This document shows positions 36,395 through 41,773 of a stretch of DNA of 64,000 bases, one piece after another. Location of the stretch: NCBI RefSeq assembly GCF_002854065.1, contig NZ_CP024147.1; one strand, 5' to 3'. This stretch comes from Escherichia coli. Its GTDB lineage: Bacteria; Pseudomonadota; Gammaproteobacteria; Enterobacterales; Enterobacteriaceae. The notes under the pieces are model-generated. The model worked only from the letters and a program-made list of their open reading frames with translations, was not told where the DNA came from and searched no databases. Each line of letters begins with the position of its first letter. The stretch's first letter is position 1. The position numbers and the translations under genes are program-made.

Positions 36395-37258
36395 ATGATC
36401 CGCAGTATGACCGCCTACGCCCGGCGTGAAATCAAGGGTGAATGGGGGAGCGCAACCTGGGAAATGCGCTCGGTAAACCAGCGTTATCTGGAAACTTACT
36501 TTCGTCTGCCGGAGCAGTTCCGTAGCCTTGAACCTGTCGTTCGCGAGCGTATTCGTTCTCGCCTGACACGCGGTAAAGTGGAATGTACCCTGCGCTATGA
36601 GCCAGATGTTAGCGCGCAAGGTGAGCTGATCCTCAACGAAAAACTGGCTAAACAGCTGGTAACTGCCGCGAACTGGGTAAAAATGCAGAGTGACGAAGGG
36701 GAAATCAACCCGGTTGATATTCTACGCTGGCCGGGCGTGATGGCAGCCCAGGAGCAGGATCTCGACGCGATTGCCGCTGAAATTCTCGCGGCGTTGGATG
36801 GTACGCTGGACGACTTTATCGTCGCGCGCGAAACCGAAGGTCAGGCACTGAAAGCATTGATCGAGCAGCGTCTGGAAGGCGTCACCGCCGAAGTGGTCAA
36901 AGTCCGCGCCCATATGCCGGAAATCCTGCAATGGCAGCGTGAGCGTCTGGTCGCGAAGCTGGAAGATGCTCAGGTGCAGTTGGAAAACAACCGTCTGGAG
37001 CAGGAGTTGGTTCTGCTGGCACAACGAATTGACGTTGCCGAAGAACTGGACCGCCTCGAAGCGCATGTTAAAGAGACGTACAACATTCTGAAGAAAAAAG
37101 AAGCGGTTGGCCGTCGTCTGGACTTTATGATGCAGGAGTTCAACCGCGAGTCGAACACTCTTGCGTCGAAATCTATCAATGCCGAAGTGACAAACTCTGC
37201 CATCGAGCTGAAAGTGTTGATTGAGCAAATGCGTGAGCAGATTCAGAACATTGAATAA
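36395..37258 (+). CDS. yicC: YicC-family stress-induced protein
   Basis: ORF track 36395..37258 (287 aa); MIRSMTAYARREIKGEWGSATWE. Confidence 0.93.
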   Translation: MIRSMTAYARREIKGEWGSATWEMRSVNQRYLETYFRLPEQFRSLEPVVRERIRSRLTRGKVECTLRYEPDVSAQGELILNEKLAKQLVTAANWVKMQSDEGEINPVDILRWPGVMAAQEQDLDAIAAEILAALDGTLDDFIVARETEGQALKALIEQRLEGVTAEVVKVRAHMPEILQWQRERLVAKLEDAQVQLENNRLEQELVLLAQRIDVAEELDRLEAHVKETYNILKKKEAVGRRLDFMMQEFNRESNTLASKSINAEVTNSAIELKVLIEQMREQIQNIE

Positions 37259-37293
37259 CTCGTAACGCCAATTCTTACTTTTCAGCCTTCACA

Positions 37294-37326
37294 AATGCCG
37301 CCCACTCAAACAGAGCGGCATTTTTC
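37294..37326 (+). terminator. Intrinsic terminator after yicC
   Basis: tgccgc-ccactcaaacaga-gcggca hairpin followed by ttttt. Confidence 0.6.
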
Positions 37327-37418
37327 TTCCCCGCAACTTTCAATTCTGTTTTGCGTGCCTGCTCCAGATTTTGCGATGTCTTTTTGCCCAGCACAGTGAG
37401 AACGTGAGATACTCACAA

Positions 37419-37434
37419 CTGTATATAAATACAG
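37419..37434. promoter_or_regulatory. LexA (SOS) box upstream of dinD
   Basis: ctgtatataaatacag = CTGT-N8-ACAG with AT-rich core, about 45 bp upstream of the dinD start. Confidence 0.8.
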
Positions 37435-37479
37435 CTACAGATTTACTTTCTTTGCAATCGATATCACATGGAGTGGGCA

Positions 37480-38304
37480 ATGAACGAACATCATCAACCT
37501 TTTGAAGAAATACGGCATTATGGCACTGAAGGGCAAGAATTTTGGTCAGCGAGAGAATTGGCACCGTTACTGGATTATCGGGACTGGCGCAATTTTCAAA
37601 AGGTACTGGCCCGCGCGACTCAAGCGTGCGAAGCCAGCAATCAAGCTGCATCTGACCATTTCGTTGAAACCACCAAAATGGTTGTATTAGGTTCAGGGGC
37701 TCAACGAGAACTTGAAGATGTTCATCTCTCCCGCTATGCCTGTTACCTGGTAGTACAAAACGGCGACCCTGCGAAACCGGTTATTGCGGCAGGGCAAACT
37801 TATTTTGCTATCCAGACCCGACGGCAGGAGCTGGCTGACGATGAAGCTTTCAGGCAACTTCGTGAAGACGAAAAGCGTCTTTTTCTGAGAAATGAATTGA
37901 AAGAACATAACAAACAATTAGTTGAGGCAGCGCAGCAAGCTGGGGTAGCGACAGCTATCGATTTCGCCATATTTCAGAATCATGGTTACCGGGGGCTGTA
38001 TGGTGGATTAGATCAGAAAGCTATTCATCAGCGGAAGGGGCTGAAAAAGAGTCAGAAGATCCTGGATCATATGGGTTCAACAGAACTGGCGGCTAATCTC
38101 TTTCGAGCTACCCAAACAGAAGAAAAACTTAAGCGGGATGGCGTGAATTCAAAACAGCAAGCTAACACCACACACTTTGACGTAGGTCGCAAGGTGAGGC
38201 AAACCATTCAGGAACTTGGCGGAACCATGCCTGAGGAGTTGCCGACCCCGCAGGTCAGCATTAAGCAGTTGGAAAACAGTGTAAAAATTACAGAGAAAAA
38301 ATAG
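37480..38304 (+). CDS. dinD: DNA damage-inducible protein D
   Basis: ORF track 37468..38304; start trimmed to MNEHHQPFEEIRHYG; LexA box upstream. Confidence 0.9.
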   Translation: MNEHHQPFEEIRHYGTEGQEFWSARELAPLLDYRDWRNFQKVLARATQACEASNQAASDHFVETTKMVVLGSGAQRELEDVHLSRYACYLVVQNGDPAKPVIAAGQTYFAIQTRRQELADDEAFRQLREDEKRLFLRNELKEHNKQLVEAAQQAGVATAIDFAIFQNHGYRGLYGGLDQKAIHQRKGLKKSQKILDHMGSTELAANLFRATQTEEKLKRDGVNSKQQANTTHFDVGRKVRQTIQELGGTMPEELPTPQVSIKQLENSVKITEKK

Positions 38305-38595
38305 CAGAAACTAAAAACTCTTTTTGTTGATTGAGACACCCGATGCGTAAGCCAAAGTCCAGGTGCGGTGAATACAATAGCTAAACATTGCACCTTTCTT
38401 TTCCACCCCTCAGTTTTAACCTATTTTTTCTTATGCATTTTCTCAGACAAGAAGTCAGAAGAATGCATCTCCGCTACAGAAAATAGCGATTTCACATAAC
38501 TACAAGTTATCAATTCCCCCTCACCTTAAAAAATCTCAATCGTGACAATACGCACAAATCGCTACCCTGCCAGACAGATTTTTAGGGAGAGAACC

Positions 38596-41773
<3,178 letters not shown>

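Follow-up and report, generated by a model that had tools for sequence, protein, structure and literature searches.

The region analysed here, referred to as the window, is a 64,000-nucleotide stretch of DNA identified as part of an Escherichia coli chromosome, with gene order taken from its open reading frames and from the RefSeq annotation of near-identical genomes. Within it, yicC (36395–37258) is followed by dinD, which ends at 38304, then by yicG on the plus strand (38596–39213), and by ligB (39210–40898), which lies on the other strand relative to yicG. The product of yicG belongs to the Pfam family Gly_transporter (PF03458) and carries the RefSeq name trimeric intracellular cation channel family protein; to our knowledge, yicG is still one of the E. 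coli genes for which neither a function nor a regulator has been described. yicG and ligB are convergent and their stop codons share 4 bp (39210–39213), and yicG is mentioned in a paper on overlapping transcription (ExcludonFinder). In stationary phase, yicG is among the top NAD-capped RNAs (46.6%; PMC8040648), from which a transcript starting with A would be implied, and in E. coli K1 it is upregulated approximately 2.2-fold following deletion of sRNA-17 (PMC7719688).

A likely yicC terminator is visible at 37295–37329, in which ATGCCGC and GCGGCAT are separated by 13 nt and followed by TTTTTCTT; with its long loop, this hairpin escaped the consensus scan. A Bro-N domain (Pfam PF02498) is present in DinD, and a canonical LexA box, CTGTATATAAATACAG (37419–37434), precedes the start of dinD by approximately 45 bp, as fits a damage-inducible gene. 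Further upstream than the LexA box, a published ChIP-exo table places a strong YdcR site in the yicC–dinD spacer (window ~37364–37383; MG1655 3,817,644–3,817,663), with a signal-to-noise ratio of 12.5, equal to that at ydcR.

The 291-bp spacer between dinD and yicG is home to an imperfect inverted repeat, and its placement in this spacer by a first-pass annotation of the sequence agrees with the open reading frames and with the RefSeq annotation. Shimada and colleagues (2014) reported a constitutive sigma-70 promoter, TTATCA-16-AAAAAT, from genomic SELEX with RpoD holoenzyme (PMC3946193). Mapped onto the window, this proposed yicG promoter would span 38507–38534 on the plus strand (TTATCA at 38507–38512, 16 bp of spacing, and AAAAAT at 38529–38534), with a predicted start near 38541. 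The repeat lies upstream of the proposed promoter, inside a region in which conserved and variable blocks alternate, and consensus scans for promoters and terminators flag neither at the repeat.

The repeat occupies 38433–38468 and comprises a left arm, ATGCATTTTCTCAGAC (38433–38448), a short centre, aagaa (38449–38453), and a right arm, GTCAGAAGAATGCAT (38454–38468). Re-reading the sequence bears out its position, the reported 5-bp separation of the arms, and their distance of about 145 bp from yicG, the centre of the repeat (38450.5) being 145 bp upstream of the ATG at 38596. Because the arms are unequal in length (16 versus 15 nt), their pairing contains a 1-nt bulge, together with one A·A mismatch and one T·G, and it is the bulge that kept the repeat from being reported by a gapless repeat finder. 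Scored instead by our own gapped inverted-repeat alignment, the window repeat reaches a score of 9; there are 55 distinct inverted repeats in the 64-kb window with a score of at least 9, and when the 291-bp spacer is shuffled, 6 of 150 trials reach this score as well. Folded as RNA, the repeat yields −11.6 kcal/mol (z = −2.5), a stability that 6 of 200 shuffles also attain. Taken alone, the window repeat is ordinary and lies only weakly beyond chance. The arm-pair pattern may also be written as ATGCATTTTT-N16-AAAAATGCAT; its exact hexamer form, ATGCAT-N24-ATGCAT, occurs once in the 64-kb window, and relative to the predicted yicG transcription start, the two hexamers fall near −75 and −105. 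In MG1655 numbering, the repeat corresponds to 3,818,711–3,818,746 and the predicted transcription start to about 3,818,819.

Conservation within the genus was assessed by aligning 17 Escherichia alleles, drawn from several lineages of E. coli, two further Escherichia species, E. whittamii, and E. albertii. Of the left arm as first annotated, ATGCATTTTCTCAGAC, the genus-conserved part is only 38433–38441 (ATGCATTTT), where seven of nine columns are invariant and three haplotypes occur (ATGCATTTT, ATGTATTTT, and ATGCGTTTT). The right arm has its conserved core at 38457–38468, which reads AGAAGAATGCAT in the window and AGAAAAATGCAT in dinD-less alleles, with 10 of 12 columns invariant (AGAAxAATGCAT). 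Between the two, the centre (38442–38456) has 0 of 15 columns invariant and six haplotypes, and it holds the inner stem and loop specific to the window; to the right of the repeat, a hypervariable flank (38469–38473) has 0 of 5 columns invariant and nine haplotypes. Seventeen of 21 arm-core columns are thus invariant, whereas the centre and right flank together have none among their 20 columns (Fisher p = 5e-8), although columns and alleles are not fully independent and the 17 alleles fall into approximately four to five lineages, so that the test contains fewer independent observations than the columns suggest. Beyond the flank, a further conserved block, CTACAGAAAA (38474–38483, plus strand; 7 of 10 columns invariant among the Escherichia alleles), forms with the right arm a direct repeat, CAGAA(A/G)AAT, approximately 21 bp apart.

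The spacing of the arms is also conserved, with the ATGCAT hexamers starting 30 bp apart in 17/17 alleles, including those of E. albertii, E. whittamii, and the two further Escherichia species. Individual strains carry the hexamer variants ATGTAT, ATGCGT, and ATACAT, and the constraint on the arms is therefore moderate. Strains lacking dinD have a perfect repeat, AATGCATTTTTCT-N12-AGAAAAATGCATT, with perfect arms of 12–16 bp across alleles; those of strain SCPM-O-B-8794 reach 16 bp, and in L004 one G-to-A change lengthens the arms from 13 to 16 bp. The dinD-less repeat folds at −17.7 kcal/mol (z = −8.7), with no shuffle as good, values in L004 ranging from −17.7 to −19.7 kcal/mol, and the length of its perfect arms together with this z value indicates that the symmetry of the repeat is not due to chance in the genus. 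The inner stem, CAGAC/GTCAG, with its 5-nt loop is specific to the dinD-carrying lineage and is already broken in Escherichia sp. MOD1-EC7003; in L005, it is changed to CAGGA. Judged from the aligned alleles, the window (K-12-like) repeat is a weakened form of the perfect repeat in dinD-less strains, and the comparison supports the outer arms as a constrained symmetric DNA element across Escherichia. Of the 5426 complete E. coli genomes, 5424 keep the spacer region as a single copy.

The spacer allele is strongly divergent in approximately 13% of complete E. coli genomes. In the four examples fetched (L002, L004, L091, and L092), dinD is missing and yicC is followed directly by yicG; an unrelated spacer of approximately 85 bp, which starts right after the yicC stop codon, stands in place of the ~1.16 kb that includes dinD. 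On these alleles, dinD is a presence/absence polymorphism. Read from the left, dinD-carrying and dinD-less alleles become homologous at 38418–38422, the right junction of the dinD indel as placed by alignment; in BLAST, matches to dinD-less genomes start at window position 38422, approximately 10 bp to the left of the repeat. In E. albertii NBRC 107761 (L008), the gene upstream of yicG is instead that for lysyl-tRNA synthetase (lysU). Three upstream contexts (dinD, none, and lysU in E. albertii) join the yicG region approximately 10–15 bp to the left of the repeat, and a shared junction of this kind would fit either the boundary of a control region or a hot spot; it agrees with the repeat being part of the control unit of yicG.

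Conservation across the upstream regions of yicG in Enterobacteriaceae had been proposed as a check on the repeat, and the outcome is divided: the repeat is kept in Escherichia, including E. albertii and E. whittamii, but not in Citrobacter, Salmonella, Enterobacter, Klebsiella, or approximately 20 other genera. No such repeat was found in ~67 distinct non-Escherichia yicG upstream regions (Citrobacter, Salmonella, Enterobacter, Klebsiella, Kluyvera, Raoultella, and others), in which the yicG core promoter region is nearly invariant. The absence of the repeat where yicG and its core promoter have been kept suggests that it is dispensable for basic yicG expression.

Ungapped alignment of these regions (loci L009–L083), anchored on the invariant AAATCTCAATCGTGA (window 38531), reveals two boxes of LysR type at offsets −111 and −35. 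The distal box 1 (38420–38434) reads CCTATTTTTTCTTAT in the window, CATACTTTTTCTAAT in dinD-less Escherichia, and ATTA(G/C)-N5-CTAAT in other genera, and its end overlaps the start of the repeat by two bases. The proximal box 2 (38496–38510) overlaps the proposed −35 element and is a perfect repeat, ATAAC-N5-GTTAT, in Escherichia, and CATTAG-N5-CTAAT in other genera. The inter-box DNA is 61 bp long, and the repeat fills the first 36 bp of it. The pattern ATTA-N7-TAAT is matched at seven or more of eight positions by 43 of 67 non-Escherichia sequences at box 1 and by 40 of 67 at box 2, compared with 1 of 67 at control offsets. In Klebsiella and Enterobacter, the boxes are near-perfect. The GcvA consensus is ATTAG-n5-CTAAT, or T-N11-A with CTAAT (PMC5002191, PMC3658693). 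Kluyvera and Shimwellia have, as their yicG box 1, exactly the box found upstream of gcvT in E. coli, ATTATATTTTCTAAT; several yicG boxes are one base away from ATTAGTTTTTTTAAT, the gcvB site; and the gcvT box is followed by CTAATGCCATTATTTTTT, close to CTAATGCATTTTTCT at yicG. Escherichia box 1 agrees with the GcvA consensus at 6–7 of 10 positions, and the window and K-12 boxes each score 6/10, with CTTAT for CTAAT (scored by eye, the scan having picked other 15-mers). In Escherichia box 2, both halves have changed symmetrically, from ATTAG/CTAAT to ATAAC/GTTAT, while still conforming to T-N11-A, and Citrobacter has an intermediate form, ATTAG-N5-GTTAT. The Escherichia form fits ATA-N9-TAT, the Nac consensus, and the change could mean that one LysR-type regulator has been exchanged for another. 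The yicC terminator hairpin of other genera adjoins box 1, and the box would thereby double as a U-tract. From the boxes, yicG is predicted to be under GcvA-type, glycine-linked control in Enterobacteriaceae, rewired in Escherichia; among papers that mention yicG, none appears, by its title or abstract, to concern GcvA.

The repeat may be read as a sequence-specific protein operator in the yicG control region, a tentative reading to which we give slightly less than an even chance of being correct. It has the general features of an operator, namely, sequence-conserved symmetric half-sites, a fixed 30-bp spacing, and a location in a gene control region. The same arm sequence recurs in all lineages beside a saturated background, with neither co-drift nor compensation between the arms, which leads us to expect base-specific recognition rather than a constraint on structure only. 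Weighing against the operator reading are the restriction of the repeat to one genus, the hexamer variants of single strains, the degraded and statistically ordinary copy in the window, and the absence of a peak at the site in the ChIP tables for NsrR and for uncharacterised regulators. Such an operator would consist of two inverted copies of ATGCATTTTTCT, each of which includes, in the majority of dinD-less alleles, a short palindrome, AATGCATT; the hexamers of the operator, starting exactly 30 bp apart, would be separated by roughly three helical turns. The likeliest occupant would be a dimer of dimers, or two cooperating dimers, seated on the outer arms only, with the central 12–15 bp left uncontacted. 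With the putative operator hexamers near −75/−105, between the distal and proximal GcvA-kind LysR-type boxes, a protein bound there would modulate transcription of yicG, acting on it directly or through the shape of the DNA that separates the boxes. A narrower version, in which the operator is that of a DNA-binding protein added by Escherichia to an ancestral glycine-responsive (GcvA-type) yicG control region, is regarded as unlikely.

Of the two options originally put forward for the repeat, a dimeric transcription factor site or a small structured RNA, the symmetric DNA site is the likely one, although confined to the outer arms (ATGCATTTT and AGAAxAATGCAT), and the RNA option is not supported. 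The accompanying statement that no regulator could be assigned still holds: no known motif fits, and the nearest, that of NsrR, fails both on spacing and on ChIP-seq. We know of no regulator that binds ATGCAT-N24-ATGCAT, and the consensus sequences of CytR, PutA, BaeR, CusR, Fis, IHF, LexA, sigma-54, RcsB, and MarA/SoxS do not appear to fit the arms. ChIP-exo tables assign none of 40 uncharacterised regulators a site at yicG; YdcR alone has one upstream of dinD. A full-text search of 8 million papers for the arm sequences matched unrelated primers only.

Several other explanations compete with the operator reading. The repeat may be a functionless relic, formed in the Escherichia ancestor by local inverted duplication of the T-tract/CTAAT region, with its arms kept matched by template-switch correction and the window copy now decaying. 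The left arm indeed repeats the core of the preceding box (ACTTTTTCTAAT, then CATTTTTCTTAA), with the right arm as its inverse, and the G-to-A change that lengthens the arms of L004 from 13 to 16 bp is what template switching would give; the degraded window allele, ordinary by chance statistics, the hexamer variants of single strains, and the absence of the repeat from other genera also count towards a relic. However, homogenisation allows the arms to drift jointly, and yet the same 9–12 nt have been kept beside saturated positions (0/20 invariant), and the 30-bp spacing is fixed despite full turnover of the centre. A relic of this kind is considered rather unlikely. Somewhat lower still is the probability that the repeat is part of a gcvTHP-like, GcvA-type complex, either offering a LysR-type regulator a secondary contact or seating an architectural protein (e.g., Lrp) that bends the 61-bp inter-box DNA. 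In most genera, the boxes match ATTA-N7-TAAT at fixed offsets, the gcvT box ATTATATTTTCTAAT and the gcvB site ATTAGTTTTTTTAAT are the same as or near the yicG boxes, with CTAATGCCATTATTTTTT resembling CTAATGCATTTTTCT, and YicG falls within Pfam Gly_transporter; moreover, the left arm begins inside box 1, and the distal-plus-proximal layout of same-type boxes flanking the repeat recalls that of gcvTHP among the known GcvA sites (gcvTHP, gcvA/gcvB). Over its first nine positions, the Lrp consensus, YAGHAWATT, appears to accommodate CAGAAAAAT and CAGAAAAT, although this consensus is degenerate. The arms, however, are not of the form ATTA-N7-TAAT and agree with ATTAG-N5-CTAAT at only ~4/10 by our own reading of the alignment; the repeat is restricted to Escherichia, while the boxes occur throughout the family; genera whose boxes match best lack the repeat; and the boxes of the window and K-12 are degraded to 6/10. 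The repeat itself as a 15-bp GcvA site was rejected, the 15-mers within the arms reaching only ~4/10.

An RNA or single-strand hairpin, serving as a 3′ stabiliser of read-through yicC or dinD transcripts or as part of a long yicG leader, is quite improbable. The repeat folds (−11.6 kcal/mol in the window, and −17.7 to −19.7 kcal/mol in L004), and its loop is free to vary, as the loops of hairpins do; against this, it lies upstream of the proposed promoter, it is the primary sequence of the arms that is kept rather than pairing alone, where a structure-only constraint would permit joint drift, and the inner stem of the window is unconserved. Three of four arm substitutions give G·U on the plus strand, but this equals the chance expectation, no pair has changed on both sides, and ATACAT in strain WW2 gives A·C on the plus strand. 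Read-through is conceivable, in that consensus scans flag no terminator in 37200–37500, 38200–38700, or L004 1650–2000, with the scan limited to loops of 3–8 nt so that the yicC hairpin found by eye (13-nt loop) would escape it; neither strand of the repeat, however, is followed by a U-tract, and Rfam 15 searched at permissive E-values returned at best E = 1.6–5.9, at 10–15 bits versus gathering thresholds of 49–100, in eukaryotic or viral families. That the repeat might act instead at the DNA level as a recombination or structural hot spot, an AT-rich palindrome extruding a cruciform or stalling replication and so attracting breakpoints and upstream cargo, is very unlikely. At least three upstream contexts share the junction 10–15 bp to its left, ~13% of complete E. 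coli genomes belong to the divergent class (dinD-less in the four examples fetched), and yicG is among loci of phylogenetic incongruence (PMC2617782). Yet the junction may equally well be the edge of the conserved yicG control region at box 1, and the repeat is present in one copy per genome, has no adjacent recombinase gene, and shows no phage, plasmid, or att similarity. Finally, a pair of NsrR half-sites, conferring nitric-oxide-responsive repression on yicG, is scarcely credible. The NsrR half-site is AAGATGCATTT, and its canonical operator is an 11-1-11 arrangement, AAGATGCATTT-N-AAATGCATCTT, as at ytfE and hmp (PMC5320621). The repeat shares with it a ATGCATTT core, an inward T-run in both arms, AT richness, and symmetry: the left arm, CTTATGCATTT, matches at 8/11 positions and the right arm, whose sequence on the opposite strand is GAGATGCATTC, at 9/11, albeit with the AAG unconserved; the half-site cores are in the same inward orientation; and single 11-bp motifs have been proposed to suffice. 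Nevertheless, the hexamers are 30 bp apart in 17/17 alleles, versus the canonical 11, the AAG is missing on the left arm, and in the CFT073 ChIP-seq tables for NsrR, none of yicG, dinD, yicC, ligB, and gmk has a peak. The peak closest to the locus in CFT073, at c4579/c4580 (4,342,139), has a different motif and is roughly 20 kb off by our own estimate. Taken together, the 30-bp spacing, the unconserved outer AAG, and the absence of a CFT073 peak indicate that the repeat is not a member of the NsrR sites.

Familiar repeated elements were also considered. Like Rho-independent terminators and REP or ERIC sequences, the repeat is intergenic, hairpin-forming, and downstream of dinD or yicC; it differs from these in its AT-rich stem, the absence of a U-tract, its single copy per genome, and its lack of an Rfam family. 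An intrinsic terminator was rejected, with 5 G-C pairs of ~14 in the stem and a tail of CTCCGCTACAG, and none being found in 38200–38700 on either strand or in the dinD-less allele. A REP/BIME, ERIC, or MITE sequence or the end of a mobile element was rejected in turn, with a median of one place per genome and a maximum of two, and collections of phages and plasmids contain no att-like or mobile copy of the repeat, only matches at chance level.

Wide operators with free centres are known elsewhere. MlrA binds at csgD to AAAATTGTACA-N12-TGTACAATTTT, and PaaX to TGATTC-N27-GAATCA; as in the yicG repeat, arms of 11–13 bp enclose an unconstrained gap of ~12 bp upstream of a promoter. Their arm sequences are, however, unrelated to those of the repeat, and neither protein is known to be tied to yicG. 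On the operator reading, the repeat is a new example of an ordinary kind, operator-like and confined to one genus, and its value is incremental, given that no established knowledge is overturned. If it is an operator, the 46-bp sequence (MG1655 3,818,706–3,818,751 in its K-12 form) would be a ready bait for its regulator. Were the operator an addition by Escherichia, yicG, encoding a TRIC-like putative glycine channel, would be doubly regulated, and the site would have a new geometry, with two AATGCATT palindromes three turns apart and a free centre. The GcvA-type control predicted for yicG is a more useful by-product than the repeat itself, and the flanking boxes pose a cheap question: does glycine, via GcvA, control a channel of the Gly_transporter family? 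The locus would also illustrate rewiring within a single genus, in which Escherichia lost good GcvA boxes, altered both halves of box 2, and gained a palindrome, while the core promoter remained fixed across the family.

Downstream of box 2, the core shared across Enterobacteriaceae (38520–38568, plus strand) reads CACCTTAGAAAATCTCAATCGTGA-N6-GCACAAATCGCTAACCT and has near-maximal information content; 40 of its 49 columns are invariant among the Escherichia alleles. Pairing of the GcvB sRNA with the conserved CA-rich yicG leader is no better than with shuffled sequences (258/1000). Within the leader (38565–38586), a stretch after the core (CCCT in E. coli, and CCTCC in Enterobacter) is complementary to the ribosome-binding site (AGGG and GGAGG, respectively), which hints at a leader hairpin that sequesters the ribosome-binding site and co-varies between genera, although RNAalifold on a MAFFT alignment of yicG leaders recovered no such hairpin. 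The core itself would span the −10 element and the first ~30 nt of the transcript, and it contains a direct repeat of AATCG and, on the other strand, a CRP-like TGTGC-N6-TCACG.
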